Positions 27,598 to 53,794 of a DNA stretch of 64,000 nucleotides are shown here, piece after piece (the first letter of the stretch is position 1; each line of letters starts with the position of its first letter). The translations under genes were made by a program, and so were the position numbers. Under the pieces are notes generated by a model. It saw only the letters and a program-made list of their open reading frames with translations. It had not been told where the DNA came from and did not search any database. Origin of the DNA: Thermodesulfobacteriota bacterium (GTDB lineage Bacteria; Desulfobacterota; Desulfobacteria; Desulfobacterales; C00003060); contig JAXHVD010000001.1 of the NCBI GenBank assembly GCA_034189385.1, positions 256,001-320,000 on the forward strand, read 5' to 3'.

Positions 27598-27659
27598 TTG
27601 ATTCATTCTGCCCAAAATAGTGGCATATTGTATGAAAAAAAATAGCCACAAGTGGAATT

Positions 27660-27826
27660 TGCTATTGTAATGTGTTATGGTTGTCTCCGATCTGTGACCC
27701 CCAACACGGATACGTTACATCTACTCCCACTCCGCAATCATCTCTGCCCGTTGGGTGGCGAGCTCCCGGATAGTGATAGCGACAATAATGCCCCAACGGC
27801 TTGACCTGGCACGTTTTTCCCCTTAA
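27660..27826 (+). promoter_or_regulatory. putative structured leader with UGA-containing uORF (27677-27826)
   Basis: Extended -10 TGCTATTGT; ATG at 27677, TGA at codon 7, frame open to TAA 27824-27826; CCGTTGGG can pair with either of two partners. Confidence 0.4.
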
Positions 27827-27914
27827 CAAGAGGAAGTCCAGTGAGAGCGGCAGCGCTGGGTTCGGTTCAGGCAAGCTGGTGGTTATGGAGAATATAGAGA
27901 AAAGGAGTGTTCAT

Positions 27915-28523
27915 GTGAAAAGAAAATCATTTGCGGTAATCTTGAGTCTTATGTTCTGCCTTCTTCTGGCCAATCCTCTGCAAAGTTGTGTGGGACGGCT
28001 TCTCGTTGTTGCGATCAACAACTCCACAGATCAAGTTATCATGGGGCAAATGTTGTCTATCCTGATCAATGAGAGAACAGGGACCACCGTTGACATTATA
28101 CAAGCGGGTGACGTGAAGACGTGCCATGAGGCGGTACTCAAGGGAGAGGCTGACATTTATGTCAATTACATAGGAGATGGACTGGCTTTGACTGGGGGGG
28201 GCGGAGGAGATGACCCTCAAAAGGTCTACACATTGGTCAGCCAGTCCTTTATGGAGAGGTTCGGAATGGTCTGGCTAAAGCCCTTTGGTTTCAAGGGCCC
28301 GTTGACCATAAAGGGCGATTCTAACAAGAAAGGGAGTGGCAGCTTAGCTGCACCAGTCACGACCAAGGATGTATTGAGAAAGTTCCCTGTTCTGGACAGG
28401 CTGATAAACAAACTGGGAGGTAGGGTGGACAACAGTATCATGGAAGAACTGAAGAGAAAGGCAGAAGGCCAAGAAGTCAAAGAGGTCGTGAGGGAGTTTC
28501 TGAAGGCCCACAAGCTGATCTAG
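27915..28523 (+). CDS. OpuAC/glycine-betaine-like substrate-binding protein
   Basis: AAGGAG RBS plus GTG start; signal peptide then CVG; GEADIYVNY.G and WLKPFGF motifs. Confidence 0.65.
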   Translation: MKRKSFAVILSLMFCLLLANPLQSCVGRLLVVAINNSTDQVIMGQMLSILINERTGTTVDIIQAGDVKTCHEAVLKGEADIYVNYIGDGLALTGGGGGDDPQKVYTLVSQSFMERFGMVWLKPFGFKGPLTIKGDSNKKGSGSLAAPVTTKDVLRKFPVLDRLINKLGGRVDNSIMEELKRKAEGQEVKEVVREFLKAHKLI

Positions 28524-28539
28524 GGATGATCAAGGCCGG

Positions 28540-28709
28540 TGGCGATCTGCAACAGGTCGGGCGGCCTTATTCGCCAAATCGCGAAAACTCTCCGCCTGAG
28601 GCGGATCAAAAGTTCACGATTTACCCACTATCGTGGGCCGCTCACAGCAGCCGAATGGGTGCCCCAAATAGCTCACAATGACCGTTCGGAAGAGTTATGC
28701 AAAGCTCTC
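28540..28709 (+). mobile_element. MITE-like repeat family B (left end degenerate)
   Basis: CTCCGCCTGAGGCGGATCAAA core and right end GTTATGCAAAGCTCTC. Confidence 0.65.
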
Positions 28710-28854
28710 ACCTTGTGTACTGGCTTCACGTATGTTATCTAGCGGGGCTCCACCCTTCAGACAGCAGGTGCAGTCTTTTCGTGAAGGGTCTGGGTCATGA
28801 GCAGAAGTGATGAATCTGAAATAAGCAGATGGAAAAGGGAGGAACCGCCATAAT

Positions 28855-29349
28855 ATGAATAAGTCATTCCTTGCGATTGTCTTGTGCCTGGTTTGGACGG
28901 GATCTGCCTGGAGCCACGGGGACATTTCGAAACTCCCTAGTTCAGTGCAGATTATGCAATATAGACTGGGCCTGTACATGAACCCGGACGATTTAGCTAT
29001 CCGCAATAAACTGGCCATGGCCCTTTACCGAACGAACCAGTTAAGGGAGGCGGAACAGGAACTAAAGCATATACTTGAAACGGATCCCGTGAATTTTGAC
29101 GCCCTTGACGGATTGGGGATTGTGCTTATTAAGATAGGTAGGGACGATGAGGCCCTGGAGCAATTGAAGAAGGCCGTGAAGATCAATGAACAGGATGTGA
29201 TGGTCCATGTCCATCTGTCCGTTGTCTATGACAAGATGAAACTGGTGAATCACGCCCAGAGTGAGCTGGAAAAAGCGAGGTCCCTTACAACGGCTCCGGC
29301 CGAGCTTGAGAACATAGAGAAAGAACGAACGCTGGTGAAAGGTCCTTAG
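28855..29349 (+). CDS. secreted tetratricopeptide-repeat protein
   Basis: Signal peptide (AWS-HG); TPR-like helical repeats. Confidence 0.8.
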   Translation: MNKSFLAIVLCLVWTGSAWSHGDISKLPSSVQIMQYRLGLYMNPDDLAIRNKLAMALYRTNQLREAEQELKHILETDPVNFDALDGLGIVLIKIGRDDEALEQLKKAVKINEQDVMVHVHLSVVYDKMKLVNHAQSELEKARSLTTAPAELENIEKERTLVKGP

Positions 29350-29409
29350 TGCGAAGTACTGGTTACGTAGTTTCAATCGGTGACAAGACTTTTAGAGGTT
29401 AAGAATTTT

Positions 29410-30327
29410 ATGAAAAACAGGTGTCTGTTTGGAGTACTATTTGTCGTTGTGTTCTTTTTTTCTGGGTGCCAAGGCAAGGAAGGCGGTGTCTCGGGCAAGG
29501 GAGACACACCCATCAGGATCGGCTACATGATTTGCAACAGTTTACAAGAGAGCATGGCAAGGTTTGAGCCAATAACGGCCTACCTGAGTGAGAAGGTGGG
29601 GCGGCGGTTTGAATCGACGTACGTCAATACTTATGAGTTTGAAGACTTGGTTCGGAAGAAGGAGGTGGATGTTACTCACACCAACTCCATCCTTCCGATC
29701 ATTTTCAAAAAGGAGTATGGACTTGAAATGTTGGCTACCGAGGTGCGAGGAAGGCACGGTCACAAAGACACGGGGGCCATCATTGCATTGAAGAAAAGCG
29801 GCATAAAGACTTTTGACGATATGCGCGGAAAGACCATGGTGTTCGGTCCTGCCCTGGCCCCCTTCGGCTATATGGCACAATATGCTCTGATGCTGGAGAA
29901 CGGATTTGATCCAGAGGAAGACCTCACGTATTACGCCATCCCTTGGGGCTCCTTTAAACATGAAAAGATCATTTATGGCGTGCTCTTTGGGGCCTACGAT
30001 TTGGGAACGGCCCCCCGTTTGGACTTGGACCACATGGCCCAAGAAGGGAAGATCAATTTGGACGATTTTAACATCATCGCCGAAACGATACCCATGCCCT
30101 ATTGAACAGTGGGCGTGATGCCCCACGTGGATCGTGGGCTGGCCAAAAAGATTAAGGAAGTTCTCATCAATCTGAAAAAGGACGAGACCGTTTTGGTGGA
30201 TGGCGAGGTGCGAAGAGTTGCTGAGAGTGCCTGGATAGAGGGATTTGTGGAGGCAATTGACAGCGAATACGACAGCATTCGAGAGCGGCTCAAGCGGTGC
30301 AACATGGCTCCTTATAGGCAGTATTGA
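29410..30327 (+). CDS. PhnD-like ABC substrate-binding lipoprotein, probable selenoprotein (UGA at 30103-30105)
   Basis: FSGC lipobox; track ORFs 29380-30105 and 30109-30327 are in one frame separated only by TGA (PMPY-U-TVG); hairpin CCCACG-TGGAT-CGTGGG at 30122-30138. Confidence 0.8.
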
Positions 30328-30517
30328 TTCAGCCTAAGACCTAGCCTTTTGAAAAGACCCCAATGGCTCAATATCCTTTGCAAAACAGGGTTCTTGAAAG
30401 GGCTAACGTTTTACGATTCAGCCACTAACGGGTTTTGTACCATATGACAAACATGAGTTTGCACGGCGACCGTTGGCTGGTGGAGTGTCGGAACATATGT
30501 CAAATGGAGGTTCCAAA

Positions 30518-31510
30518 TTGAGGAATGACTTACTTCGTCTCGTTTTCATCAGAGCTGTTTTGCTTTCTTTTTTGGTGATGATTCTCTCCCTTTCCCTGAC
30601 AAGTGTCGCTTTAGGAAAGCCGCTGGTTATAGAAAAGGGTATTATCAAGTCCGATACGACCTGGCAGAACGAAGTGATCATCCGGGGGGACGTGGAGATA
30701 GCTGAGGGTGCCACATTGGTCATCATGCCGGGAACTGTCGTCAAGTTTGCAAAGATACAAGAGAATGGTCCCGCGAATCTTGAGATGGACAAGGCAAAAA
30801 ACTTCACTCGCGCTGAACTGATTATCAATGGAAGGATACTGGCCCAAGGCACGAAAGACAAAGTCGTCGTCTTCACTTCTGCGGAGAAATCTCCTAGCCT
30901 TGCTGATTGGGGGGCCATTAACATGTTGGAGAGCGACAATAACATCTTTGAGTATTGTGACATCAGCTACGGCCATACTGCAGTGCACGGACACGGTGCC
31001 CAGTTCACGGTCGCCAATTGTTATCTCCATGACAACGGCGTGGCGATCGGTTTCAAGAATGTGGATCAATGCAAACCCCAATGCGTCACCGTTCTCTATA
31101 ACCATATTACTCGAAATGGGGGGGGCGTATTGTGCAGCAGGGACTCGAGAGCTGTGGTGAGTCACAACCAAATTGATCACAACAAGTTCTTTGGCATATA
31201 TGGGAAAATGGGATCCCACCTGAGTATCAGGTATAATCACGCCGTTCATAATGGGAAAGGGGTTATTGTCTATGCCATGAAGGGCCTACAGCTTCGAGAA
31301 AACAACATTTCTGACAATGATGAGTATAACATCTCCCTGATGGAGGGTCAGATATGGAATGTAGATGCCCGCCATAATTGGTGGGGCACACCGGACACTA
31401 AGATCATCACAGCGTTGATCTGGGACAAGGATGAGGAGGTGACGCTGGGCACAGTGGACTTTTCTGGCTTTGCAGATTCGCCGATTGATGGCGCGGGACT
31501 TCCACGGTGA
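30518..31510 (+). CDS. secreted right-handed parallel beta-helix protein
   Basis: Signal peptide; DTTW, LVIMPGTVV, DWGAI, Asn-rich repeats and NWWG. Confidence 0.8.
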   Translation: MRNDLLRLVFIRAVLLSFLVMILSLSLTSVALGKPLVIEKGIIKSDTTWQNEVIIRGDVEIAEGATLVIMPGTVVKFAKIQENGPANLEMDKAKNFTRAELIINGRILAQGTKDKVVVFTSAEKSPSLADWGAINMLESDNNIFEYCDISYGHTAVHGHGAQFTVANCYLHDNGVAIGFKNVDQCKPQCVTVLYNHITRNGGGVLCSRDSRAVVSHNQIDHNKFFGIYGKMGSHLSIRYNHAVHNGKGVIVYAMKGLQLRENNISDNDEYNISLMEGQIWNVDARHNWWGTPDTKIITALIWDKDEEVTLGTVDFSGFADSPIDGAGLPR

Positions 31511-31517
31511 TTAGATA

Positions 31518-32051
31518 GTGGACTGGTTAGACAGACTGAGCATAGCGGCCATAGCGGCCATAGCGGTGATCACCATAGGCATGTTGGCAAATCAGGCGCT
31601 CATGCAAAGAGGGGAAGAGAATCCTGGTGAGGAAGCCAAGGGAGGGAAGAGCTCCTACGCCTTGCAGATGGAGGAAGACAACAAGCTTTTCAAAGAAGTG
31701 CGTGCTTTTCAGGAACAAGGGCACTATCAGGAAGCCATGGCACAAGCTAAAGATATTATGAAAAGCTATCCAAAGAAATCTATGCCCTATGTTTATCTGG
31801 CACGGCTGCATTTCAAACAGGGAGAACTGAGAGAGACGATCATTAACTATCGACTGGCAGTGGAGATGGAGCCGGACTATGTGGATGAAAGAACACCACT
31901 TTTCATTGGAGAGGAGATCAAACAGATTGTCGAAGAAGGTAGAGAGAAATTTGGACGGGAAAAGGTGCTGAAGCCTGAAGACAGTCAGGTTAGGAACGCC
32001 TTGAAAGACATCTACTATCTTCAGAGTAGGTTGGCTGGAGGGTGTGAATAG
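31518..32051 (+). CDS. membrane-anchored TPR protein with C-terminal GGCE
   Basis: N-terminal TM segment; TPR-like helices; ends RLAGGCE. Confidence 0.7.
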   Translation: MDWLDRLSIAAIAAIAVITIGMLANQALMQRGEENPGEEAKGGKSSYALQMEEDNKLFKEVRAFQEQGHYQEAMAQAKDIMKSYPKKSMPYVYLARLHFKQGELRETIINYRLAVEMEPDYVDERTPLFIGEEIKQIVEEGREKFGREKVLKPEDSQVRNALKDIYYLQSRLAGGCE

Positions 32052-33125
32052 ATGAGGGCGCTCAGGGTGATTGATGCTTCCATAGTGACCGGGGCCCTGT
32101 TGGGACTGGGAGGTGTTTTCCTGGTCTCTTTTGGAAATCCAGTGAACTCTGGAATCTGCGTCTCCTGTTTTATGGAGAATGTAGCCGGGGCCTTGCAGCT
32201 CCACGATGACCTGCGTATGAGTTACATACGTCCTGAACTCATAGGCTTCATATTAGGGTCCTTTCTGGTGGCCACAAAGTCTGGGCGATTTCAGGTGAAA
32301 GGAGGTTCCTCTCCTCTCATCCGGTTTTTCATGGGCTTTTTCATCATCGTAGGGTGTGCTGTCTTTATCGGATGTCCCATCAAGATGATTCTTCGCTTAG
32401 GGGCTGGTGACCTGACGGCTATTGCCGCTACTCTGGGGCTCACGTTTGGGATCTGGTTGGGTGTCAGGTACATCAAAGGGGGGTTCGCCCTGGACCGAGA
32501 AAAGGCGCTTCCCCCTATGAATGGCCTTGTAATTCCACTAGTTGCCCTTCTTCTACTGGTTTTCCTATTCATCAGTCCATCTTTTGTTAAAACAGGACAA
32601 AAGGGTCCGGCAGCCTGGCACGCCCCCATATTCATATCACTATTCACAGGGCTCGCCATCGGCGCTTTTGCCCAAAGGTCAGGGCTGTGCATCACTGGAG
32701 GGATACGAAATTTCTTCCTGGCTGGAGAGAGAACGTTGCTGAATGGCGTTATTACCGCCTTCCTATCGGCTCTCATGCTGAGTGTCGTTCTGGGGCAATT
32801 CCGATGGGGGATGACCGCCCAACCGGCATCCCACCTAAACCATGGATGGACCTTCTTGGCTATGGTCCTCGTGGGCATTGCCTCTGTATTGATTGATGGG
32901 TGTCCTTTTAGGCAGTTGATAAAAGCGGGACAGGGCGATGTAGATGCCGGTGTGACAACGCTAGGGATGCTTTTTGGTGGGGGCCTGGTATACTCATGGG
33001 TGCTCAGAAGCACTTCTGCTGGCCCCACGTTCGAAGGAAAGATTGTGGTGCTGATTGGCCTGATTTTTGCTTTGGTGGTAGCTGTGGCATTTCGAAAAAG
33101 AAAACTTGTCGGTCAAGAGAGATAG
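32052..33125 (+). CDS. yedE: YedE/YeeE family putative selenium/sulfur-compound transporter
   Basis: GNPxNxGICxSCF, YIRPE, GCP twice and SGLCITG; about 10 TM segments. Confidence 0.88.
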   Translation: MRALRVIDASIVTGALLGLGGVFLVSFGNPVNSGICVSCFMENVAGALQLHDDLRMSYIRPELIGFILGSFLVATKSGRFQVKGGSSPLIRFFMGFFIIVGCAVFIGCPIKMILRLGAGDLTAIAATLGLTFGIWLGVRYIKGGFALDREKALPPMNGLVIPLVALLLLVFLFISPSFVKTGQKGPAAWHAPIFISLFTGLAIGAFAQRSGLCITGGIRNFFLAGERTLLNGVITAFLSALMLSVVLGQFRWGMTAQPASHLNHGWTFLAMVLVGIASVLIDGCPFRQLIKAGQGDVDAGVTTLGMLFGGGLVYSWVLRSTSAGPTFEGKIVVLIGLIFALVVAVAFRKRKLVGQER

Positions 33126-33140
33126 CAAAGGTTATATGGA

Positions 33141-33722
33141 ATGAAATGGTTTGGGAAAGCTAACAAAGAGGAAGTCTCTCTTCAATCTGAAGCCGTGACC
33201 AGGGGCCTCTTGATATTTTCAGATACCAGCACGGTCATGCAGGCTGAGCAGATACTTAAAGAGGAAAGTTACAATATCAAAGTCGTCAGCCCTCCTGAGA
33301 AGTATCGTACCGGCTGCGACCTGTGCGTGGAGTTCCCATTGGTTGAGGAGCCGGGGATTACGAGGATCTTGAAGAAGCTGGGATTGACACCCATAGATGT
33401 GCTCCCCATATCTCCGAATGGACTGGAGCCTTTGAGACTATGCAGAACCAAGGACTTTGGCCAGTATCTCATGGTCAGGGCGGCCAACATGAAGATTACC
33501 ATAGAGAAGAAGACCAATAGGATCGTCAATGTGTCTGGCGGGGGTTGCCCGGATGTGCCTTACTTGGCTTACGAGATGGTAGGCAAAGTCCTCTCCGAGG
33601 CCCCTGAACCGGTACTTATAGGTTTTTCCATGTGCGCCTATTCCCTGAATACGGCTCGAGAAGAAATGATGAAGATTACGGGAGGGAGAGATGCTTCTTC
33701 TGGTTGGGCCGATACCGATTAG
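33141..33722 (+). CDS. DUF3343-domain protein
   Basis: AE..LK, RTGCD, SGGGCPD and C-terminal Cys motifs; adjacent to yedE. Confidence 0.75.
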   Translation: MKWFGKANKEEVSLQSEAVTRGLLIFSDTSTVMQAEQILKEESYNIKVVSPPEKYRTGCDLCVEFPLVEEPGITRILKKLGLTPIDVLPISPNGLEPLRLCRTKDFGQYLMVRAANMKITIEKKTNRIVNVSGGGCPDVPYLAYEMVGKVLSEAPEPVLIGFSMCAYSLNTAREEMMKITGGRDASSGWADTD

Positions 33723-34554
33723 GGACCTACCCCTTTCGCTGGGTCGGATTGAGGTTACCGAAGAGGGGCTTAGGGTGGACAGTCAAGCCCTGGATGTGAA
33801 CCGAGGGACAGCCGCCATGATGTCAGCTGCTTACACCGTCTGTAAGGAGTTTGGCTTGGAAGGCCCCATGGGTTTGGTGGCAGGGGATATAGGCACCAGG
33901 GCTGGCAGTGTAAGAATCTATGAGCATCTGGCAGACAACCTCTCGCTGGAAGATGTGGATGTTCTGACCCTCCACTACATCATGCCTGATATTCCCAGGA
34001 ATAAGGCTTTTTTGGAGACAATGGCGTCCCTGAAAAAAAGGCCTGTTCTGATAGCCGATGCCGGTGCCATGTATGTGGCCAAGGCTGGCGGCGATGCTGA
34101 CAAATATGATGTCTTTACCCCGGATTTGGGGGAGATGGCCTTCCTGGCTGACGAGAGAGCGGCCCATCCCGCCTACACGCGAGGATTCATCTTTCATCTG
34201 GAAGACGATGTGCCTGAGTTGATCCGCCGAGCCCATGCGTCCAAAAACGCTGCTCGCACGTTATTCGTGAAGGGCAAAGTCGACTATATCTGCCAGGACG
34301 GGGAGATCGTTGAAGCCATAACGGAACCGAATATAGAGGAGTTGGAACCCGTCGGGGGAACTGGGGACATGATTACCGGAATGATCAGTGGATTGATCTA
34401 TGCCGGGAAATCACATCTTGAAGCCTGCCGGATAGCAGGAAGAGTGAACAGGAAGGCCGGGGAACTTTGCCGGCCCACCCCTGCCACCCAGGTGGTGGAG
34501 ATCATAAAGTGTATCCCAGAGGCACTGAAACAGGTGCTCAAAGAGCAAGGATAG
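33691..34554 (+). CDS. ribokinase-fold carbohydrate kinase / NAD(P)H-hydrate dehydratase-like protein
   Basis: LIADAG, FTPD.GE, VKG..D and GGTGD anion-hole motif. Confidence 0.75.
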   Translation: MLLLVGPIPIRDLPLSLGRIEVTEEGLRVDSQALDVNRGTAAMMSAAYTVCKEFGLEGPMGLVAGDIGTRAGSVRIYEHLADNLSLEDVDVLTLHYIMPDIPRNKAFLETMASLKKRPVLIADAGAMYVAKAGGDADKYDVFTPDLGEMAFLADERAAHPAYTRGFIFHLEDDVPELIRRAHASKNAARTLFVKGKVDYICQDGEIVEAITEPNIEELEPVGGTGDMITGMISGLIYAGKSHLEACRIAGRVNRKAGELCRPTPATQVVEIIKCIPEALKQVLKEQG

Positions 34555-34557
34555 GTC

Positions 34558-34821
34558 ATGCCCAAGTTCATCATCCCTTTTCCACTTCGTGAACATGTGG
34601 ACAATCAGCGCGAAGTCGTGGTCGACGGAAATAGCCTGAAAGAAACCATGGAGCAGTTTTGGCGAAGGTATCCTGCACTGAAAAGGGTGAATCATGATTC
34701 GTCTCTCCTATCTATCTTTGTCAATAGCAGATTGATTAGGACTGGGATCGAAACGTGGGACAGCCTGCCTTTGAATAAGGATGATGAGATCACTCTCATA
34801 ATCCCCATAGCTGGAGGGTAG
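34558..34821 (+). CDS. MoaD/ThiS/CysO-like ubiquitin-fold carrier protein
   Basis: 87 aa; IP.PLR, YP.L, IFVN and C-terminal PIAGG. Confidence 0.9.
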   Translation: MPKFIIPFPLREHVDNQREVVVDGNSLKETMEQFWRRYPALKRVNHDSSLLSIFVNSRLIRTGIETWDSLPLNKDDEITLIIPIAGG

Positions 34822-34832
34822 GGGGAGGAGAT

Positions 34833-35408
34833 TTGGTCTCATTAGGGGAAATCAGCCGCACAGTGTTGCCGGTTCAGCATTGGCAGGAGATTCAGGCGCA
34901 TTGCAAGAGGAAACTCGCGGGACAGTATCTGCCTGGTGAGTCCGCAGGCCGAAAGGCCTATGGTTTGCTGGCAGGCACCCAGAATGGTTCGACCCTAAAG
35001 GTGGAGCGAATACTGCCGGCAAGAAGAAATGTCAGAGATCAAGAGCCTTATAAGACGTATATGGACAAGATGATGGAACAGCATGCCATCCCTTCGAAGA
35101 CGCCCTTGAGTAGCAGAGGCTGGATCACGGATCCTGAGGAGCTCAAGCAGTATTACGATAGGTGCGACCAAGAAGGACTTATCGTATTTGGGACTTATCA
35201 TATGCATGTTGTCCCCTGGGAACATGATGCTGTGAGGGATACGCCGACCAAATTGGATGCTATATTGGCCCGAAATAGTAATCTTTTTTCATTCATCGTT
35301 TCCATGGTTGATGTGAGCCATCCCAGCATTAGAGCCTTTTATGAAGCCATGAGGGAGAGAGAGATACCGGTCCTTGTGGAAGACGGACAATCTGTAAGTC
35401 CTCAATAA
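34833..35408 (+). CDS. divergent JAB/MPN (JAMM, Mec+-like) metalloprotease
   Basis: GLLAG, DPEE, G.YHMH and PTKLD; directly follows the Ubl gene. Confidence 0.7.
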   Translation: MVSLGEISRTVLPVQHWQEIQAHCKRKLAGQYLPGESAGRKAYGLLAGTQNGSTLKVERILPARRNVRDQEPYKTYMDKMMEQHAIPSKTPLSSRGWITDPEELKQYYDRCDQEGLIVFGTYHMHVVPWEHDAVRDTPTKLDAILARNSNLFSFIVSMVDVSHPSIRAFYEAMREREIPVLVEDGQSVSPQ

Positions 35409-35449
35409 CCTCGGGCAAAGCCCCTAAGACCACGTTGGCCAAGAGGCAA

Positions 35450-35526
35450 TTGAACCGAATAAACGAGCGCATTCCCCTTGGGTTGACTTCGACGAGCTCA
35501 GTCGAGTGGCCACGGGGAGGGTTCAA
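35450..35526 (+). repeat. palindromic repeat family A, copy 3
   Basis: TTGAACCGAATAAACGAGCGCATTC...CCACGGGGAGGGTTCAA. Confidence 0.75.
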
Positions 35527-35634
35527 TTTGAAAACGTCTGAAAATCGCTCAAACAGTCAGCCATTTTCAAATTAGACCACCTAACGCCCTAGTTTTTAAA
35601 AAGTTGCGACAACCTGACGAAAGAAAATGAAATT

Positions 35635-36810
35635 ATGGGAGATATCCTGGACACAGAACCAGAGTTGATGGTGGAGTATACGGATCCCTTGGAGGGATTC
35701 AAAGGGTGGTTGGCCATTGACTGCCTTTCCCACAAGCTTTGCGCTGGAGGGTTCAGAGTCCAAAAGGGACTCACCCGTGACATCGTGGTCAGTTTGGCCC
35801 GGAACATGAATCTGAAGATGCGGATAGCGGGCATTCGGGCAGATGGGGCCAAGAGCGGGATTGACTATGATCCCCATTCACCCGGAAAGACAGCGGCACT
35901 TCACCGCTTCATAAGGGCCATACGACCCCTCATTCTGGAGCGCTATTCCATGGGGCCGGACCTCAATGTGAAGCTGAAAGAACTTGATGATATTGCGAAG
36001 CAATTGGACATTCCTTCGGTAAAGGTTGCCATCGCCAAAGCCCAGGGCTTTGATCTCCCGTACTTTTTGAAACGCTATGGCCTCTTGGGAGAGCCGGTGG
36101 ATCATGCCACAGTCGGAAAACTGCGTTCAGGTTTTGGGCTTGCGGCAGCCTGCTTAGGAGTCCTTGAGTTCCTGGGGATCCCCAATGAAAAGGCAACGGT
36201 GGCCATTCAAGGTTTTGGTGGTTTGGGCAGCGCAGCTGCTTATGGTCTTCAGAGGGCCGGGGTTAAAGTGGTTGGGATAGCCGATGAGGAGAAAAGCCTC
36301 ACCTGTACCAATGAGCACCCACTTGATGTGAAGGCCTTGGTGCAACACGCTGTGAACGGCCTCATTCCAAGTGGATGGAAGAACAGCGGACAGTACGCTG
36401 ATCGAAGTCACATATTTGACGTCACGTGCGACGTGTTCATTCCGGCAGCGATCGAGAATGCTGTTGTTCAAGATAATGCCGGGACCATCTCCACAAAGGC
36501 CATCGTGCCCGGTGCCAATCTTGCCATTACTGAGGAGGCGGAAAGGGTACTGAACGATCGTGGGATTATTACCATACCGGATTTTGTGGCAGGATGCGGT
36601 GGTTCCATGTCGATGAAGGCGCTGTTTGGTCCCAAATCCCATCCCACTGCAGCAGATTTGCTTAACGGCTTGGCTGAAGGCATGCGTGGCATGGTGAAGA
36701 GGGTCTTAGAGCGGAGTCAGAAAGACGGCACCACACCAAGGGAGGCAGCCTTGGATCTGTGCTCCGAAGCCCCGATCTATCCCGATGCCAAACCGTACGG
36801 CCCTCTGTGA
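35635..36810 (+). CDS. Glu/Leu/Phe/Val dehydrogenase family protein
   Basis: GGFR, M.LK, GAKSGI, GPD, IQGFGGLG, PAA, GAN and IPDFVA. Confidence 0.88.
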   Translation: MGDILDTEPELMVEYTDPLEGFKGWLAIDCLSHKLCAGGFRVQKGLTRDIVVSLARNMNLKMRIAGIRADGAKSGIDYDPHSPGKTAALHRFIRAIRPLILERYSMGPDLNVKLKELDDIAKQLDIPSVKVAIAKAQGFDLPYFLKRYGLLGEPVDHATVGKLRSGFGLAAACLGVLEFLGIPNEKATVAIQGFGGLGSAAAYGLQRAGVKVVGIADEEKSLTCTNEHPLDVKALVQHAVNGLIPSGWKNSGQYADRSHIFDVTCDVFIPAAIENAVVQDNAGTISTKAIVPGANLAITEEAERVLNDRGIITIPDFVAGCGGSMSMKALFGPKSHPTAADLLNGLAEGMRGMVKRVLERSQKDGTTPREAALDLCSEAPIYPDAKPYGPL

Positions 36811-36900
36811 GCTGAAAGCTGAAGGCTCAATAGCTGAAAGGGTCCTCAGGATCCAGCAAACCATCCATTCCTCTTCCCAACACCCCAAGGCGCAACAATC

Positions 36901-38277
36901 ATGCCCTCTCATCCCATTGATTTTGAAATAAATCCAAACGTCTATAGCACCCCTGAACTACTAGCCATATTTGACGAAAAGGCAAGGTACCAGCGGTGGC
37001 TCGATTTCGAGGCTGCCCTGGCAAAGGCCCAGGCAGAGATGGGCGTGATCCCTCAAGAAGCGGCTGATGAGATCCAAAGCAAGGCAAGGCTTGCATACTT
37101 AGACTTGGACGCCGTTCACGAGGGGTATCTTCATAGCCGCAATTCTCTCATGCCGTTGATAAACGGTCTTCGCAACGTCTGCGAGAAGGGCTACGGAGAG
37201 TACGTTCATTTCGGTGTGACTACTCAAGACGTTCTGGATACTGGCGAAGTCCTTGAGCTGAGAAAGACCTTGGCCGTCGTTTATCGCGATCTTCGGGCCC
37301 TGGAGATGACTTGCCTGGATCTGGCAAAGAGGCATCGATCAACGCCCATGGTGGCCCGCACCCACGGCCAACAGGCCCTACCTGCCACCTTTGGCCTAAA
37401 GGTTGTCACTTGGTCAAGCGAGATTCGGCGTCACATTGACCGGACTAAAGACCTTTCTCAGAGATTGACGTTCGGGCAATTGAGCGGTGCCGTTGGAACC
37501 ATGGCCGCCTTGGGGCCCCATGCGATGGAAGTTGCCAGACGCACCCTGGACCTCTTGGGCCTCAGGCGTCGTCCCTTGGCGTGGCATAGCTCCAGGGAGC
37601 ACATCGGGGAATTGGCCTGTGCCTTTACCCTCATGGTCACCACGTTCGCGAAGATGGCCAATGAGATATTCCAACTTCAGAAGACGGAAATCGGCGAGTT
37701 GAAAGAACCTGCGCCAAAAGGAGCTATGGCCAGTAGCACGATGCCTCATAAGAGAAACCCTGTTATCTGTCAACGGGTTGTCGTCCTTTCTCGGCATGTG
37801 AGACACCTGGCAGGGACCGTTGTAGAGAGTATGGCGCACGAGCACGAGCGAGATGCCCGCTGCCTGTGGGGGGAGTGGTTGGCTGTGCCCCAGCTATGCA
37901 TCCACACCGGCGCCGCCTTGAAGTACATGCTAGATGTGATGTCAGGCCTCGAGGTGAACGTTGATCGCATGAAGGAAAATCTCCATCTTCAGAAAGCCAT
38001 GATCACATCGGAATGGCTGCTTTTCAAGTTGAGCCACACCATGGGCAAGATGAAGTCTTTAGAGAAGCTCCACGAGCTTTCAAACAAGGCCATGGATGCA
38101 GGGATTCCATTCAAAAGGGCTGTCATGGATGACCATGATACAGGGAATCTCCTTACGAGTGATGAAATAGAATATCTCGACCACCCGGAAAGATACATCG
38201 GGCATGCCCTGGAGATAGTAGACGAGACTGTGGAGGAGATTGAAGGGAAGAGGGCTTCAGATCCAACAAAGCTGTAG
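36901..38277 (+). CDS. adenylosuccinate lyase-like (aspartase/fumarase superfamily) protein 1
   Basis: HFGVTTQD, RTHGQQA, GAVG, SSTMPHKRNP and HERD. Confidence 0.9.
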   Translation: MPSHPIDFEINPNVYSTPELLAIFDEKARYQRWLDFEAALAKAQAEMGVIPQEAADEIQSKARLAYLDLDAVHEGYLHSRNSLMPLINGLRNVCEKGYGEYVHFGVTTQDVLDTGEVLELRKTLAVVYRDLRALEMTCLDLAKRHRSTPMVARTHGQQALPATFGLKVVTWSSEIRRHIDRTKDLSQRLTFGQLSGAVGTMAALGPHAMEVARRTLDLLGLRRRPLAWHSSREHIGELACAFTLMVTTFAKMANEIFQLQKTEIGELKEPAPKGAMASSTMPHKRNPVICQRVVVLSRHVRHLAGTVVESMAHEHERDARCLWGEWLAVPQLCIHTGAALKYMLDVMSGLEVNVDRMKENLHLQKAMITSEWLLFKLSHTMGKMKSLEKLHELSNKAMDAGIPFKRAVMDDHDTGNLLTSDEIEYLDHPERYIGHALEIVDETVEEIEGKRASDPTKL

Positions 38278-38354
38278 GGTTCACATCGCAGGATTTATGT
38301 GTCTGAGGGGGAGAGACTCTGTCGTGATGGTCAACTCTGCAGTATCGGGTAACG

Positions 38355-39035
38355 AAATCCTAATGTCGAATATCGAAGCCCGAGACAAATTCGAATGACA
38401 AAAAGAGATAAACCCAAGCAATATGATCTGGAAGATCGAACGCTTGCGTTTGCAAAACGGGTCAGAGCATTGGTAAAAAAGCTGAAAAAGACCATGGGAA
38501 ATATGGAAGACGGAAAGCAGGTGATTCGTGCTTCGGGCTCTGTCGGCGCGAACTACATCGAGGCCAATGAATCTCTCAGCAAGAAGGACTTCATCATGAG
38601 AATCAAGATTAGTCGGAAAGAGGCTAAAGAAAGCCGATACTGGCTGCGACTGTTGGATATTGGTGACGCGCCAGAGCAAGAGAATGAGCGTAAGGTTTTA
38701 GTTAACGAGGCTACGGAACTCATGAATATCTTCGGCGCAATATTGGTCAAGAGCAAAAGTGGTTAGAACATTTGGGCCTCTCAATTTCGGATTTAGAAGG
38801 CGCTGGTCAATGCCTATGAACGTGATGGATTCTCATAATGCCAATCAGTGCCTGAACGAAAAGTCATGTTCAAGGGAAATCCGAATACGGAACTAAGAAA
38901 TTCAAAAAGAATTCGAATGCGAAATGACAGAATGGTCAAGATAATTGATGACTCTTTGGAATTAGATCGTTTTGGTCATTGAGATATTACCATTTTTGTC
39001 ATTGTTTCGTGTTTCGAGATTCGGATCTCGAATTT
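38355..39035. mobile_element. four-helix-bundle cassette with (CGAAATC)-like inverted arms
   Basis: 38355-38390 is an imperfect reverse complement of 39001-39035; a second internal left arm lies at ~38877-38930. Confidence 0.6.
38395..38766 (+). CDS. four helix bundle protein (23S rRNA IVS-protein / TIGR02436-like)
   Basis: DLEDRT..FA, Q..R..GSVGANYIEA, KDF and KEAKES.YWL. Confidence 0.92.
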   Translation: MTKRDKPKQYDLEDRTLAFAKRVRALVKKLKKTMGNMEDGKQVIRASGSVGANYIEANESLSKKDFIMRIKISRKEAKESRYWLRLLDIGDAPEQENERKVLVNEATELMNIFGAILVKSKSG

Positions 39036-39084
39036 TTGAACGCAAGGAGCGGGTTTTCTGTGAAGCATCAATTAGGAAGCGATC

Positions 39085-40527
39085 ATGATTTCGTGCAAGC
39101 CAAACAGCCATATCACCGATTCACGATTCTATAGCAGCGGCTATACCACTGAGGAGGCCCGCAGGGTCTTTTGCGATAAATATCGGTACCAACGCTGGAT
39201 AGAGATAGAAGCCGCTATGGCCTCAGCACAGGCGGATCTTGGAATGATTCCCAAATGGGCAGCCGAGGCCCTCACTGAGAAGGCCCACCTTCGCTATTTG
39301 GACCTGGAGGCCATTAAGGCGGGCATAAAGACAACCAGTCACTCCCTTCTCCCTTTGCTTAGGGCGTGGCAGGAAGTTTGTGACGCCGCTGCTGGAGAAT
39401 TCATTCACTTTGGTGCCACTACCCAGGATATTCAAGACACTGCCCAGGTCCTAGAGATTCGTGACATACTGGGTATTGTTGAGCGCGACCTTACGGCGAT
39501 TGTCCGACAAGTGATGGAACTGGCCGAGCGTTACTCAGGGCTTGTTACCATTGGTCGCACGCACACACAACATGCCTTGTCCATGACACTGGGGCTAAAG
39601 GTGGCTGTGTGGCTAGATGAGCTTTGGCGAAACGTCGAGCGACTGATGGAATGCAAGGAGCGGGTGCTGGTGAGTCAGCTTTTCGGGGGGGTTGGTACGA
39701 TGGATGCCTTTGGTAATAAGGGCCTTGAGCTATTGTCCCTGTTTTCGCAGAGGCTGAAACTAAAGGCGCCCCTCACAGCCTGGCATGTCTCGCGGGACCG
39801 GGGGGCTGAATTCCTTGCCACCATGGCCATGATTTCTGGCACTTGTGCCAAGATAGCCAATGAGATCCGATGCCTGGCGAGGAGTGAAACTGGGGAACTG
39901 GAAGAGCCTTTTCAAATGGGCAAAGTGGGGAGCAGTACCATGCCTCACAAGAGAAATCCTGAAATGTGCGAGCAAGTCATCGTATTGGCAAGGCTCATTA
40001 AGGCCAATGCGGGTTTGGGCTTTGAAGGGATGATTAATGAGCACGAACGGGATTATCGGGCCGTGAGGTTGGAGTGGGTCACCATAACGGACACATCCCT
40101 TTTTGTGTGCGGGCTTTTGTCCTTGATGAAGTCGATCTTGAAGGATCTTATCATCCATGAAAATAGGATTCGTGAGAATGTTGACAAGGCAGCCACGCTC
40201 ATTTCAACAGAGGCCTTGATGTTTTTTCTCGGAGAGACCATAGGGAAGCAGACGGCCCATGAGATTGTCTATGAGACCTCCATGGAGGCTATTGAGACCA
40301 GTCAACCCTTGATCGATCTGTTGATGAACCATAAGGAGATACAGGGAAGATTCAGGCGTGAGGATGTTGAAAGAATCATTGATCCCAAGAACCACGTTGG
40401 CATGTCTGAAAAGCTGACACGCAGAGCGGTTGCATACGTAAGAGAGAAACTACTAGAGAAAGGCCCGTGTGAACAGAGTGAAAGGCTCTGCCCCCTTAGC
40501 GAAAAAGACGGGCGCTGCAGTGTTTGA
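39085..40527 (+). CDS. adenylosuccinate lyase-like protein 2
   Basis: HFGATTQD, GRTHTQHA, GSSTMPHKRNP and HERD. Confidence 0.9.
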   Translation: MISCKPNSHITDSRFYSSGYTTEEARRVFCDKYRYQRWIEIEAAMASAQADLGMIPKWAAEALTEKAHLRYLDLEAIKAGIKTTSHSLLPLLRAWQEVCDAAAGEFIHFGATTQDIQDTAQVLEIRDILGIVERDLTAIVRQVMELAERYSGLVTIGRTHTQHALSMTLGLKVAVWLDELWRNVERLMECKERVLVSQLFGGVGTMDAFGNKGLELLSLFSQRLKLKAPLTAWHVSRDRGAEFLATMAMISGTCAKIANEIRCLARSETGELEEPFQMGKVGSSTMPHKRNPEMCEQVIVLARLIKANAGLGFEGMINEHERDYRAVRLEWVTITDTSLFVCGLLSLMKSILKDLIIHENRIRENVDKAATLISTEALMFFLGETIGKQTAHEIVYETSMEAIETSQPLIDLLMNHKEIQGRFRREDVERIIDPKNHVGMSEKLTRRAVAYVREKLLEKGPCEQSERLCPLSEKDGRCSV

Positions 40528-40597
40528 GCAATTTGAGATAGTGTTTTCAGCAAGATAAGCATTAGTCTTTTATGAAGAACTTTTCGCTTTTGATTCT

Positions 40598-40687
40598 CTG
40601 ATTCTGGGTACTGGTTACTTGATGCCAGATAAGCGAAATGATGGGAGAGACTCTTTGAAGTGTCCAGTATCGTGCATCCAGCATCAG
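40598..40687. repeat. empty inverted element with (CTGGATR)-like heptamer arms
   Basis: CTGATTCTGGGTACTGGTTACTTGATGC versus GTGTCCAGTATCGTGCATCCAGCATCAG; a related arm lies at ~7643-7662. Confidence 0.65.
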
Positions 40688-40760
40688 ACTGCGCTGTAGT
40701 GAACTCTCGCAATGCTCACAAAATGGACAACTCACAACACGTTGTCCTGGTATTCTATCT

Positions 40761-41477
40761 TTGAAACGCTATCAAAGACAGATAATCCTTTCTGAATGGG
40801 GTCCGGAAACCCAGAAAAAGCTTAAGGCCGCCAGGGTTTTTGTCGCCGGGGCAGGTGGCCTGGGGTGTCCCGCTGCATTGAATCTTGCCCTCGCAGGTGT
40901 GGGACACATCAGGATCTGCGATTTCGACACTGTTGAGATTAGCAATCTCAACAGACAATTCTTGCATACAGAAAAAAGTGTCGGCACCAGGAAGGCCCGC
41001 TCTGCGCGGGAGACCCTCTTGTCCATCAATTCAGAGATCACCGTTGAGGCCATATCAGAGAAGATCACTGATCGAAACGTGGGTGATGTCGTGGGGGACG
41101 CCCAGGTGATCGTGGATTGCCTAGACAATTTTTCCGCCCGTTATGCCTTGAATAACTGTGCCGTGAGGAAGGGTATCCCCATGGTTCACGGGGCCATATG
41201 GGGGTTGGAAGGGCGTGTCGTCTTTCTCGACCCTCCCAAGACCCCCTGCCTTGCATGCATTTTCCCCAAGGCCCCGGCCAGTGAGCCGTTGCCAGTCATA
41301 GGCGCCGTTTCTTGCGTCACAGGAAGCCTGCAAGCCCTAGAGACCATTAAGTACCTGACTGGGATCGGGAGGCTTTCAGCCGGACGCATGTTGATTATAG
41401 ACGGATCCACCATGGTATTTCAGGAGCTTGAAGTCTTCAGAAACCCCGAATGTCCTGTTTGTGGAGAACAAGAGTGA
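40761..41477 (+). CDS. ThiF/MoeB/HesA E1-like adenylyltransferase
   Basis: RYQRQI, GAGGLG, D.VEISNLNRQ, DCLDN, CLAC and CPVC; no rhodanese domain. Confidence 0.93.
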   Translation: MKRYQRQIILSEWGPETQKKLKAARVFVAGAGGLGCPAALNLALAGVGHIRICDFDTVEISNLNRQFLHTEKSVGTRKARSARETLLSINSEITVEAISEKITDRNVGDVVGDAQVIVDCLDNFSARYALNNCAVRKGIPMVHGAIWGLEGRVVFLDPPKTPCLACIFPKAPASEPLPVIGAVSCVTGSLQALETIKYLTGIGRLSAGRMLIIDGSTMVFQELEVFRNPECPVCGEQE

Positions 41478-41479
41478 AA

Positions 41480-41985
41480 AGAGGTCAAGGTGGGAAGCTC
41501 AATGCTTAAAGCTGAAGGCTCAAAGCTTAAAGCGAACAAATACCGCATCAACTGTTTGAAATTGAGTTTATCAACCCTTTGATCATCGACGCTATTTCTA
41601 TTCCACTTAATTCGAGTTTGGAATACGCTTCGTCAGAAATCCATTTCTTTCTTTTGAAGACTTCGAGCAAGGTCATTGTTTCATAGAGAGAGCCTCTCGA
41701 CACATACAAGAACTGAACAAACTCCTTCTTTGAAAAGCGTCCCTTTCCTTCGGCAATATTCATAGACACACTCGTGGAACTAGCTTCAATCTGTTCAAGC
41801 AACCGATAGTGTTTACGGTCTGTAGACAGATCTTCTACAAGATCAATTACCTGAACGGCGAAATCGACCGCCTTGTTCCACACGTCCAGGTTTTGATAGG
41901 CGAATTTCATTGAAATATTGGTCCTCTTTCACCTTCCGACCTTCAGCATTGAGCTTTCAACATTGAGCTCTCCACTTTCAGCTCT
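41480..41985. mobile_element. four-helix-bundle cassette with (GCTSAAA)n inverted arms
   Basis: ~55-bp imperfect inverted arms at 41480-41536 and 41928-41985. Confidence 0.7.
41548..41910 (-). CDS. four helix bundle protein
   Basis: YQNLDVW, SVSMNIAEG.GR, EF..FL..SRGSL.E. Confidence 0.92.
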   Translation of the reverse strand: MKFAYQNLDVWNKAVDFAVQVIDLVEDLSTDRKHYRLLEQIEASSTSVSMNIAEGKGRFSKKEFVQFLYVSRGSLYETMTLLEVFKRKKWISDEAYSKLELSGIEIASMIKGLINSISNS

Positions 41986-42874: not shown

Positions 42875-42907
42875 GCATGGCCTTAGAGCTCAAAGGAGGT
42901 AGTCGAA

Positions 42908-51328: not shown

Positions 51329-51365
51329 CCACTCCATCGGTTGTCTTAAATACTTCAACCTGAAA

Positions 51366-53792: not shown

Positions 53793-53794
53793 GA

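Follow-up and report, generated by a model that had tools for sequence, protein, structure and literature searches.

A YedE-linked gene cluster of Thermodesulfobacteriota encoding a candidate ubiquitin-like carrier pathway for selenium or sulfur

Among the sulfur-carrier pathways described in bacteria, those closest to the system reported here are, as we take it, the CysO-MoeZ-Mec+-CysM pathway of mycobacteria and the HcyS/HcyF/HcyD pathway of Wolinella, in which a carrier ending in Gly-Gly, a MoeB-type E1 enzyme and a JAMM protein are encoded together. Both pathways use the thiocarboxylate of the carrier as nucleophile, and in both the product is detached from the carrier by the JAMM enzyme. 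We describe a gene cluster with the same trio, namely a ubiquitin-like protein (Ubl), an E1 and a JAB/JAMM protein, in a stretch of 64,000 nucleotides (hereafter the window) from the genome of a Thermodesulfobacteriota bacterium (assembly GCA_034189385.1, contig JAXHVD010000001.1, positions 256,001 to 320,000). There the trio is combined with genes for extracytoplasmic binding proteins, a YedE-family channel, a DUF3343 protein, a kinase-fold protein, an amino acid dehydrogenase and two enzymes of the fumarate-lyase superfamily.

The reading that we prefer, tentatively and with somewhat less than even confidence, is that an imported chalcogen is passed to the E1-activated Ubl, added by a lyase to a substrate of the C4-dicarboxylate type, and released by the JAB protein; the cluster may build a selenium- or sulfur-containing small molecule. 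Its gene content, its conservation, the family placement of its products, the pairing of selenocysteine (Sec) and cysteine in one of the binding proteins, and the fit of the Ubl tail in the JAB site of a structural model are directly supported by the analyses given below. Specific incorporation of selenium is known in selenocysteine, in selenouridine, in the cofactor of molybdenum hydroxylases and in SenABC-type selenometabolites. To our knowledge, how trace selenium is captured and handed over to enzymes is largely unknown, and the specific uses that we know of all proceed via SelD.

Gene content and conservation of the cluster

A preliminary description of the region, made from the sequence alone, had listed a co-oriented run of genes on the + strand. 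Open reading frame (ORF) calls together with Pfam and NCBIfam scans recover that run, with every listed gene at its given place between 27801 and 41477; what the list had overlooked is a four-helix-bundle gene between the two lyases, and the start that it gave for the first binding protein (27915) may instead lie at 27801. The genes, all on the + strand, are as follows (SBP, substrate-binding protein; TPR, tetratricopeptide repeat; GDH, the dehydrogenase; Ly1 and Ly2, the lyases):

27801..28523 (start maybe 27915), +: SBP1, OpuAC-like binding protein, probable lipoprotein (LQSC); PF04069, 55 bits
28855..29349, +: TPR1, exported TPR protein; TPR families of Pfam
29380..30327, +: SBP2, PhnD-like binding protein with an in-frame TGA (Sec) at 30103-30105 in PMPY-U-T; PF12974, 150.8 bits with the TGA read through
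30473..31510, +: NosD-like right-handed beta-helix protein; PF13229, PF05048
31518..32051, +: TPR2, membrane-anchored TPR protein with C-terminal AGGCE; weak TPR matches
32052..33125, +: YedE-family channel of the selenium-associated type; TIGR04112
33141..33722, +: DUF3343 (Se_S_carrier) domain fused to about 100 more residues; PF11823, 56.5 bits
33691..34554, +: kinase-fold protein, Carb_kinase/YjeF_C/NnrD-like, with a GGTGD motif; PF01256, 50.6 bits
34558..34821, +: ThiS/MoaD-like Ubl ending PIAGG, then stop; PF02597, 29 bits
34833..35408, +: JAB/MPN-fold protein, a family of its own; family alignment, fold model, Foldseek
35635..36810, +: GDH, divergent Glu/Leu/Phe/Val-type amino acid dehydrogenase; PF00208, PF02812
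36901..38277, +: Ly1, fumarate-lyase superfamily, ADSL/CMLE/XcbD group; Lyase_1/ADSL_C, NCBIfam scores, tree
38395..38766, +: 23S rRNA IVP-family four-helix-bundle gene between the lyases; PF05635, TIGR02436
39085..40527, +: Ly2, second enzyme of the fumarate-lyase superfamily; Lyase_1/ADSL_C, NCBIfam scores, tree
40761..41477, +: MoeB/ThiF-type E1 of 238 aa, without a rhodanese domain; PF00899, 251.7 bits

The tight spacing noted earlier from yedE through the JAB gene is likewise found, with gaps of 3-15 nt (YedE-DUF3343 15 nt, kinase-fold-Ubl 3 nt, Ubl-JAB 11 nt) and one overlap of 32 nt, between the DUF3343 and kinase-fold genes; upstream of these, TPR2 and YedE are separated by 0 nt, the stop codon of the former directly abutting the start of the latter. 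The reported lack of a cysteine synthase, MoaE, ThiG or rhodanese holds for the window ORFs that were scanned, a set that stops short of the smallest ORFs.

Scanning one genome per species with an alignment of the JAB family yielded 37 loci from other species, in which the presence of each gene was scored by tblastn with the window proteins; many of these loci are truncated by contig ends. Nearly all come from metagenome-assembled genomes (MAGs) of Thermodesulfobacteriota, including Desulfobacterales, SEEP-SRB2-type bacteria, Desulfobulbaceae, Desulfocapsa and Thermodesulfatator. The DUF3343 fusion and the kinase-fold gene are each present in 35 of the 37, followed by the Ubl (32), Ly1 (31), Ly2 (29), YedE (27), GDH (26), E1 and TPR2 (25 each), SBP2 and the beta-helix gene (23 each), SBP1 (22) and TPR1 (21), and the complete 13-gene set from SBP1 to E1 is seen in 17. 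Gene order is the same, save for a swap of TPR1 and SBP2 in six loci. Because the arrangement recurs in other species, the gene run is more than a chance assembly, and the neighbourhood that the preliminary description had marked for comparison is a conserved one.

Variant arrangements also occur. At two loci (L015 of genome G415 and L018 of G418) the Ubl and E1 genes are missing, and a separate Ubl-GDH-E1 operon lies elsewhere in the genome (L049, L050); DUF3343, kinase-fold, JAB, Ly1 and Ly2 genes form the one operon, and the other consists of Ubl-GDH-E1 beside a divergent SBP1, so that all parts are kept, in one of the genomes with the second operon about 16 kb off on the same contig. In three further loci (L001, L004 and L005) YedE and the binding proteins are absent and the DUF3343/kinase-fold pair still precedes the Ubl. 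The JAB family itself is rare: an even sample of 401 genomes of the phylum has it in 2, the present one included, and it is found in 1 of 72,556 plasmid records.

The carrier trio, the paired lyases and a Salmonella relative

The Ubl (29 bits to PF02597 against a cut-off of 22.5) is of the small beta-grasp type and has a free C-terminal Gly-Gly, with G86 and G87 invariant in 17 aligned sequences and the ending PIAGG found in 33 of 33. Its neighbour, the JAB protein, reaches only 16.2 bits against the Pfam JAB cut-off of 22.5. Of 325 candidates in a search, 238 proteins had E <= 0.001, and among the 120 relatives listed, which are 57-91% identical, a single one has a precomputed Pfam JAB match. 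The fold model of the protein (predicted local distance difference test score, pLDDT, 89.1) displays an MPN fold, for which the top Foldseek matches are 2kks, PfJAMM1 (5ld9/5lda) and 8tyx, at E-values of 7e-9 to 3e-8; the 8tyx-type match is to a bacterial complex of a Ubl and its deubiquitinase. The nearest clusters in the ESM Atlas, which we treat as a lead, are either unnamed or labelled Prok-JAB. The motif H123-x-H125 ... T139-x-x-D142, with a spacer of 13 residues, is invariant or nearly so in the family.

A model of the complex between JAB and Ubl obtained a score of 0.86, against 0.01 for the best of three controls. In a benchmark the same score was reached by 116 of 157 solved complexes and by 2 of 215 mismatched pairs, counts that are only approximate for our case, as custom alignments were used. 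Between model runs at least 94% of the contacts agree, with a partner pLDDT of at least 83, and the modelled contacts set Ubl residues 83-87 against H123, T139 and D142 of JAB. As modelled, then, the Ubl tail fits the JAB site; the high score may also reflect likeness to known folds, because JAMM-Ubl complexes have already been solved. Since the Ubl already ends at Gly-Gly and needs no trimming, the JAB protein most likely cleaves something attached to the terminal glycine.

The E1 consists of a single ThiF domain in its 238 aa, with no rhodanese domain detected by Pfam. It retains a nucleotide-binding glycine motif (GAGGLG) and two conserved CxxC pairs of the Zn-binding kind, C163/C166 and C231/C234. 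Its best equivalog match stands at 257 bits against a cut-off of 449 (NF006444), and it falls below every NCBIfam equivalog or subfamily cut-off listed, among them those for MoeB, ThiF, MoeZ and UbaA.

Both lyases belong to the fumarate-lyase superfamily by their Lyase_1 domains (PF00206, 148.5 and 145.3 bits) and by the SSxMPxKxNP loop, TTQD and T-H-x-Q motifs, which have catalytic roles in the superfamily. The preliminary description had held out the possibility that they are ordinary PurB enzymes, from which they are set apart on several grounds. Against the PurB model TIGR00928 (cut-off 326.2 bits) Ly1 scores 310.6-310.8 and Ly2 325.1-325.2 bits; the genome encodes a separate PurB on contig C8 that reaches 560.2 bits. 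Scores against NF006500, an unnamed ADSL subfamily with a cut-off of 626, are 466 bits for Ly1 and 560 bits for Ly2, and against the XcbD model NF052536 (cut-off 600) they are 446.4 and 464.9 bits, the control XcbD of Nocardioides JS614 obtaining 687.6. In a maximum-likelihood tree of 28 rows, whose deep forks are unresolved and which includes one row with an internal stop (a Streptomyces rimosus homologue), Ly1 and Ly2 fall into clades with support of 100/99 and 92/86, respectively; the genome's own PurB, a PcaB and true XcbD all lie outside both. We conclude from these sequence relationships that Ly1 and Ly2 are to be regarded as dedicated paralogues and not as housekeeping PurB. Among the Protein Data Bank (PDB) entries, Ly2 best matches 3c8t, Tad1 and CMLE.

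A feature common to the two lyases is a cysteine three residues past the SSxMPxKxNP loop (C290 of Ly1, codon 37765-37767; C295 of Ly2, codon 39967-39969). It is present in 30 of 30 Ly1 and 31 of 31 Ly2 sequences, its place being taken by serine in PurB, PcaB and the Streptomyces homologue; at the next position Ly1 has a glutamine where the others carry glutamate. The homologue from Streptomyces rimosus, 46% identical to Ly2, has no other cluster gene detected within 9 kb, in a sequence whose high GC content makes the ORF calls noisy. The dehydrogenase, compared with 1v9l and 2tmg, keeps the lysine of GAKSG and the aspartate of GPD, and an alanine replaces the lysine of the KGG-x-R motif in 27 of 27 family members. 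In glutamate dehydrogenases that lysine binds the side-chain carboxylate. With a best equivalog score of 98.7 bits against a cut-off of 620, the enzyme is probably not specific for glutamate.

The second-best plasmid match to Ly2 led us to an integrase-bounded island on a plasmid of Salmonella enterica serovar India (NZ_CP022016.1). Its genes, annotated by homology alone, run in the order E1 with rhodanese domain, JAB, Ly2-type lyase, GDH-like dehydrogenase, a fusion of a Ly1-type lyase with TrmO_N, and a Ubl ending in PIAGG; further genes of the island code for a Peripla_BP_2 binding protein, a KdgM porin, an IS30 element, an SLC13 permease, and a FecCD-type ATP-binding cassette (ABC) permease with its ATPase. 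Identities to the window proteins are 43% for JAB (E 5e-53), 41% for both the Ly2-type lyase and the dehydrogenase, and 39% for the Ly1-type lyase. The Salmonella SLC13 permease is 37% identical (E 5e-94) to a DASS permease encoded upstream of SBP1 in 15 of the 37 loci. The island thus shares seven families with the cluster across two phyla (E1, JAB, both lyase types, GDH, Ubl and the SLC13/DASS permease), the Salmonella lyases grouping inside the Ly1 clade (the TrmO fusion) and the Ly2 clade (LyA). Yet it lacks YedE, DUF3343, the kinase-fold protein and the envelope relay genes, its uptake genes being of the siderophore ABC type, and the window proteins have neither the rhodanese domain of the Salmonella E1 nor the TrmO_N fusion of its Ly1. 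The place of the rhodanese domain is taken in Desulfobacterota by the DUF3343/kinase-fold pair directly before the Ubl. By these comparisons the enzymatic core is to be seen as a separable unit. In the window, too, a TrmO_N gene with a signal-peptide-like N-terminus lies beside the E1 gene (41984-42490, - strand). We rejected it as a partner and take its position for coincidence, because it recurs in none of the 37 loci and has three paralogues in the genome.

The envelope proteins and the link to selenium

Only read-through of the TGA at 30103-30105 yields a full-length SBP2; translated with Sec at this codon, the protein matches the Phosphonate-bd family over residues 48-297 of 316 (E 5.4e-44). 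The UGA had been reported in the preliminary description, and as a Sec codon in this genome it stands, but relatives do not share it: wherever SBP2 occurs in the other loci (23 of 23), the codon is TGC or TGT, giving the motif PMPY-C-T. This is the usual pattern of Sec here and Cys elsewhere, by which SBP2 is predicted to be a selenoprotein in this genome, where the machinery comprises a Sec-containing SelD, SelB, SelA and a tRNA-Sec. The TGA is kept in both contigs that cover the codon in a metagenome run that may be the source of the assembly, one of which comes from a variant strain that differs at seven further places in the vicinity; a run from a separate study gives no coverage of this codon. 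Some 22 nt past the UGA lies a stem of 6 bp (CCCACG/CGTGGG) with the loop TGGAT. The 60-nt fold, at -14.6 kcal/mol, is not stronger than those of the loci with the Cys form, and Rfam gives no match to a selenocysteine insertion sequence (SECIS) downstream of the UGA.

Invariant cysteines mark the other envelope proteins as well: Cys63 of SBP1, within a lipobox-like motif, C52 of SBP2, C162 of the beta-helix protein, and the cysteine in the C-terminal GGCE of TPR2. Such cysteines fit a thiol/selenol relay across the envelope, as far as sequence conservation can indicate. The AGGCE end of TPR2, invariant in 26 sequences, is one that we liken to the GGCGG arm of SoxY; it may serve as a swinging carrier cysteine or as a substrate of the JAB protein. 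The same end (32037-32051) also resembles the GG-CF end of QbsE, as given in the part of the literature consulted (PMC5925218).

YedE matches TIGR04112 with 389 bits against a cut-off of 200, over positions 3-336 of 337, a family whose selenium transport is itself a prediction. The DUF3343 fusion has three invariant cysteines (C59, C136 and C165) and a fold model with a pLDDT of 82.2. A profile search of PDB sequences returned nothing below E 0.16, and a fold search against PDB nothing at E <= 0.001, with weak ACT-like rows only; the C-terminal domain of the fusion is thus one without a detectable solved relative. The kinase-fold protein matches the Nnr protein TM0922 (E 2.7e-6).

On contig C29 of the same genome (8020-11726; L040 4973-8832), paralogues of these three proteins are encoded one after another immediately before SelD, as found by tblastn and Pfam, with identities of 41% for YedE, 51% for the DUF3343 fusion and 45% for the kinase-fold protein; the C29 YedE reaches 478 bits against TIGR04112. 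A YedE-DUF3343-kinase cassette stands beside SelD in three of seven other cluster genomes examined (G401, G404 and G407; 8 SelD places). Moreover, the YedE of the cluster is the only TIGR04112 member in all five relatives checked (four of those seven, plus G417), each of which has a Sec-containing SelD. We therefore posit that the import module of the cluster is probably the cell's selenium importer in those five genomes. The association of YedE and DUF3343 with selenium, earlier drawn from the families as such, is strengthened by the C29 cassette and by the five genomes with a single YedE.

The surroundings of the cluster call for a brief account. We consider that the four-helix-bundle gene at 38395-38766 is not part of the system: it is absent between the lyases elsewhere, the gap from Ly1 to Ly2 measuring 6-131 nt in the other loci. 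A terminator-like hairpin after it (39013-39032) may split the operon in this genome, and the window holds three genes of this 23S-rRNA-IVP/four-helix-bundle kind in all, at 38395-38766 (+), 41548-41910 (-) and 53895-54233 (+). Between SBP1 and TPR1 an ORF of 67 aa without a family match (28539-28742, +) occupies a gap that in a few relatives is filled by a NicO/DsbD_2-like membrane gene, counted in 3 of the 37 loci by tblastn and in 5 by clustering. Further NosD-like beta-helix genes follow the cluster (42908-44968, +); such proteins, 25-33% identical, follow in 10 loci. The remainder of the window (1-27228 and 50771-64000) is given to the synthesis and export of polysaccharide, with glycosyltransferases, Wzy, a Wza-like protein, a Wzc tyrosine kinase, Wzm/Wzt and DegT aminotransferases, and in 10 related loci, too, the opposite strand upstream of the cluster carries a Wzc-like gene. 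Rfam found no match at gathering score in the whole window nor at E <= 1 in 27000-42900, hence no clue to a riboswitch, and a promoter and terminator scan of the region gave counts not above those of shuffled sequence.

A putative chalcogen relay, its alternatives and its relatives

By analogy with the chemistry of the families concerned, and from the order of the genes, all five steps of a relay can be drawn up in which the cluster would form one functional unit of two modules, an envelope relay and a sulfur-carrier-type system. In the first module the binding proteins, the beta-helix protein, the two TPR proteins and YedE would capture a reduced chalcogen species and bring it into the cell, both binding proteins being of the lipoprotein type and one of them bearing a presumably reactive Sec in this genome and Cys in others. 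In the cytoplasm the chalcogen would be taken over by the DUF3343 fusion, with its three cysteines, and by the kinase-fold protein. The MoeB-like E1 would adenylate the C-terminal Gly-Gly of the Ubl, and chalcogen from the DUF3343/kinase-fold pair would turn the adenylate into a thio- or selenocarboxylate. One lyase might then catalyze the conjugate addition of this group to an unsaturated substrate of the C4-dicarboxylate type, with the second lyase and the non-glutamate amino acid dehydrogenase making the substrate or converting it further. Finally, the JAB protein would hydrolyse the link between Ubl and product, so that the carrier is recycled. The preliminary description had sketched much the same route; the conserved neighbourhood, the dedicated lyases, the link to selenium and the fit of JAB with the Ubl speak for it, and the choice between selenium and sulfur is left undecided by SelD.

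Regarding this choice, we slightly favor selenium as the element carried in this organism because of the identity of the import module, the SelD cassette and the genomes with a sole YedE, and because a sulfide-rich organism would need no elaborate importer for biosynthetic sulfur. A bolder form of the proposal, which we consider rather unlikely, is that the Ubl is charged with selenium as a protein selenocarboxylate, that neither SelD nor selenophosphate takes part, the element coming from YedE and the DUF3343/kinase-fold pair, and that the lyases build a C-Se bond in a molecule of the dicarboxylate or amino acid type.

A number of points weigh against the relay as drawn, or against selenium as its cargo. 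Every Ubl carrier known to us carries sulfur, and this precedent, together with the E1 with rhodanese in Salmonella, favors sulfur. As the Salmonella core has such an E1 and no YedE, the core can apparently run on ordinary sulfur without the import module. The host taxa are sulfur cyclers, and relatives of YeeE/YedE carry thiosulfate, according to the portion consulted of a recent study (PMC13047784). The preliminary description had named co-occurrence with selD as a check: SelD is present in 30 of the 37 cluster genomes, these being MAGs whose completeness is not established, but also in 369 of 401 genomes of the phylum, and because it is near-universal its co-occurrence says nothing on selenium versus sulfur. 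All five of the SelD-lacking cluster genomes that were checked retain Ly1 and Ly2, again in MAGs whose completeness is not established. On the side of the enzymes, the JAMM motif is described as E-x(n)-H-S/T-H-x7-S-x2-D in the source as consulted (PMC5925218), and in an alignment of hidden Markov models to 2kks the position of its glutamate is R/K41, an invariant E36 lying five residues upstream; because the canonical glutamate is so replaced, hydrolase activity of the JAB protein is not assured. GDH is not beside JAB in 11 of the 37 loci. Conversely, a Schekmanbacteria MAG (L035:2178-3901) has JAB-like and GDH-like genes alone, with a one-base overlap, its contig of 12.7 kb containing no lyases, E1 or YedE and a weak Ubl match lying on another contig. 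Lastly, a third DUF3343-kinase-Ubl set is spread across two contig ends of the present genome (C20:203-766 and C14:73536-74779; L042 and L041), followed by an Rrf2 regulator, with identities of 61% for DUF3343, 71% for the kinase-fold protein and 59% for the Ubl. It occurs in this MAG only, whose contamination is 4.19%, and the other cluster genomes (32 of 32) have a single Ubl copy each, for which reasons we give the set little weight; it is a peculiarity of this organism or else a product of faulty binning.

The main rival to the relay, which we regard as unlikely overall but as a serious contender, keeps the two modules in cooperation and separates them chemically. The core would draw on ordinary sulfur, from free sulfide here and from the rhodanese in Salmonella, and its product would be a dicarboxylate bearing a thiol or thiocarboxylate. 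Exported via the DASS permease and a channel of the outer membrane, this compound would bind selenium or a metal outside the cell as a 'selenophore' or metallophore, and the selenium would be recovered for SelD by YedE, the envelope module and the DUF3343/kinase-fold pair. An exported product would explain the permease, porin and binding-protein genes of both lineages: Peripla_BP_2, KdgM, SLC13 and the FecCD-type ABC permease and ATPase in Salmonella, and, among the 37 loci, the upstream DASS gene, TPR and outer-membrane barrel genes downstream of E1 in 13, and an MFS gene between YedE and DUF3343 in 4. The five genomes in which the cluster YedE is the sole TIGR04112 member must still feed SelD, and thiocarboxylate siderophores made via a sulfur carrier and a JAMM enzyme, as with QbsE/QbsD, are known from the section consulted of PMC5925218. 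Against this stand the gap of just 3 nt between the kinase-fold and Ubl genes, the DUF3343/kinase-fold pair remaining with the core where YedE and the binding proteins are gone (L001, L004, L005), the E1 lacking a rhodanese domain exactly where that pair occurs, and the finding that no DASS or outer-membrane barrel gene adjoins the cluster in this genome. Different again, and improbable in our estimate, is the salvage of organosulfur or organoselenium dicarboxylates such as S- or Se-(2-succino) adducts, from which the lyases would free fumarate, GDH would deaminate the amino acid moiety, and the Ubl and E1 would trap the sulfide or selenide. Elimination of fumarate is the natural direction of the ADSL family, the dehydrogenase retains its catalytic lysine and aspartate, and binding proteins, DASS/SLC13 permeases and porins accompany the enzymes; but we know of no catabolic route with the Ubl/E1/JAB trio, the pairing of the two lyase orthogroups persists from one phylum to the other, in line with a fixed order of biosynthesis, and what YedE-family channels pass is small and inorganic, as work cited in the consulted part of PMC13047784 has shown for thiosulfate.

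There is also but a slim chance that the cluster handles sulfur for energy metabolism, in the way put forward for the YTD cluster of sulfur disproportionators: thiosulfate, polysulfide or elemental sulfur would be imported and processed, with the Ubl as the cytoplasmic acceptor. The hosts, which include Desulfobulbia, Desulfocapsa, Thermodesulfatator and SEEP-SRB2-type MAGs, the Cys-bearing envelope proteins, the NosD-like beta-helix proteins and the multihaem cytochrome genes found downstream of E1 in 8 loci (Lcl_C proteins follow in 5) would agree with this idea, as would the linkage of YedE-related genes to disproportionation in the portions seen of PMC12998232 and PMC13047784. However, YedE is of the TIGR04112 type, neither TusA nor DsrE was found in the Pfam and NCBIfam scans, the JAB family is far rarer (2 of 401 genomes of the phylum) than sulfur metabolism, the same core is present in Salmonella, and stoichiometric carriers with an adenylating E1 suit biosynthesis and not bulk flux. 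Very improbable, finally, is a system for protein modification of the SAMP/Urm1 kind with JAB as the deconjugase, or for phage defence, to which the metabolic genes would be mere neighbours. The E1 does obtain 221 bits against the model for SAMP-activating E1 (cut-off 450), with at most 65 bits against models of defence E1-E2 proteins, and the modelled JAB-Ubl interface is like that of deubiquitinase complexes. But there is no E2 and no target-recognition gene, PADLOC was negative for the Ubl, JAB, kinase-fold, DUF3343 and GDH proteins and gave generic matches only for the E1, and the trio keeps its metabolic neighbours in two phyla and in the loci with a split operon. A role in the synthesis of the nickel bis(dithiolene) cofactor of cable bacteria, suggested by the twin lyases, the sulfur carrier and the NicO-like gene, was also considered and rejected as the principal reading: in the part consulted of the relevant report the Raman signature of the cofactor is seen in no other microorganism (PMC13534509), and the cluster occurs in many non-cable taxa.

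If the relay that we prefer is correct and the carrier bears selenium, the finding would be categorically new. A protein selenocarboxylate would add a form of activated selenium new to biology and a further route to its specific incorporation. The carrier-activation system sits exactly where SelD stands in the common cassette, and thus offers a concrete test of alternative selenium activation. With sulfur as the cargo there would still be novelty in a sulfur-carrier pathway with fumarate-lyase-family enzymes in place of those dependent on pyridoxal phosphate (PLP), in a JAB family without the canonical glutamate, and in a product with its own transport genes in marine sulfur cyclers, relatives of cable bacteria included, and on a Salmonella plasmid. 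That plasmid island, together with the apparently cultured strain behind locus L029, makes bench work feasible. In keeping with the earlier impression that the system is undescribed, a search of main texts as distinct from supplementary files found no published description of the gene set; none was present in the available parts of Lin et al. 2015, of two 2026 papers on sulfur in Desulfobulbales, of two on cable bacteria and of one on chuangxinmycin.

Set beside the CysO and HcyS pathways, the cluster has no PLP synthase of the CysM or MetY kind and has two fumarate-lyase-family enzymes and a dehydrogenase instead; its E1 is devoid of a rhodanese domain, its JAB protein carries R/K at the canonical glutamate and a 13-residue spacer between HxH and TxxD, and it is tied to YedE, DUF3343 and a kinase-fold enzyme. 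An XcbD-type enzyme (NF052536, 3-sulfopropionylcysteine synthase of bacterial coenzyme M synthesis) is the best named match of both lyases, from the same subgroup of fumarate lyases, and makes a C-S bond with the same fold; yet both lyases score below its cut-off and form separate clades, and no ComA-like or PLP partner is nearby. The selenium-associated YedE and DUF3343 genes (Lin et al. 2015, PMC5322559, as far as consulted) and the C29 SelD cassette present the same three families in the same order, from which the cluster differs in having the Ubl-JAB-...-E1 genes at the position of SelD, in the lack of a YedF/TusA-like protein, and in five extracytoplasmic proteins before YedE. The YTD cluster (YedE-related, TusA, DsrE-like and chp; PMC12998232 and PMC13047784, in the parts available) occurs in the same bacterial orders and likewise pairs cysteine carriers with a channel of the YedE family, but with other partner proteins and with none of the Ubl, E1, JAB and lyase genes; the words MoeB, ThiF, DUF3343 and adenylosuccinate are absent from the available text of both papers, and JAMM from that of PMC12998232. 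The thioquinolobactin system QbsC/D/E, as set out in the consulted part of PMC5925218, is alike in using a sulfur carrier, a JAMM protein and an E1 for the synthesis of a small molecule, a metallophore, near transport genes, and the Salmonella relative likewise stands beside a siderophore-type ABC importer. It differs from the cluster in that the C-terminal CF of QbsE is trimmed by QbsD (same source, same part); because the cluster Ubl is already GG-ended in 33 of 33 sequences, its JAB protein must do something other than such trimming. The cluster also has no acyl-adenylating ligase, and the GGCE that resembles the GG-CF of QbsE is borne by the membrane protein TPR2 and not by the Ubl. By analogy, we propose that the cluster functions like the CysO/HcyS/QbsE class of sulfur-carrier pathways.

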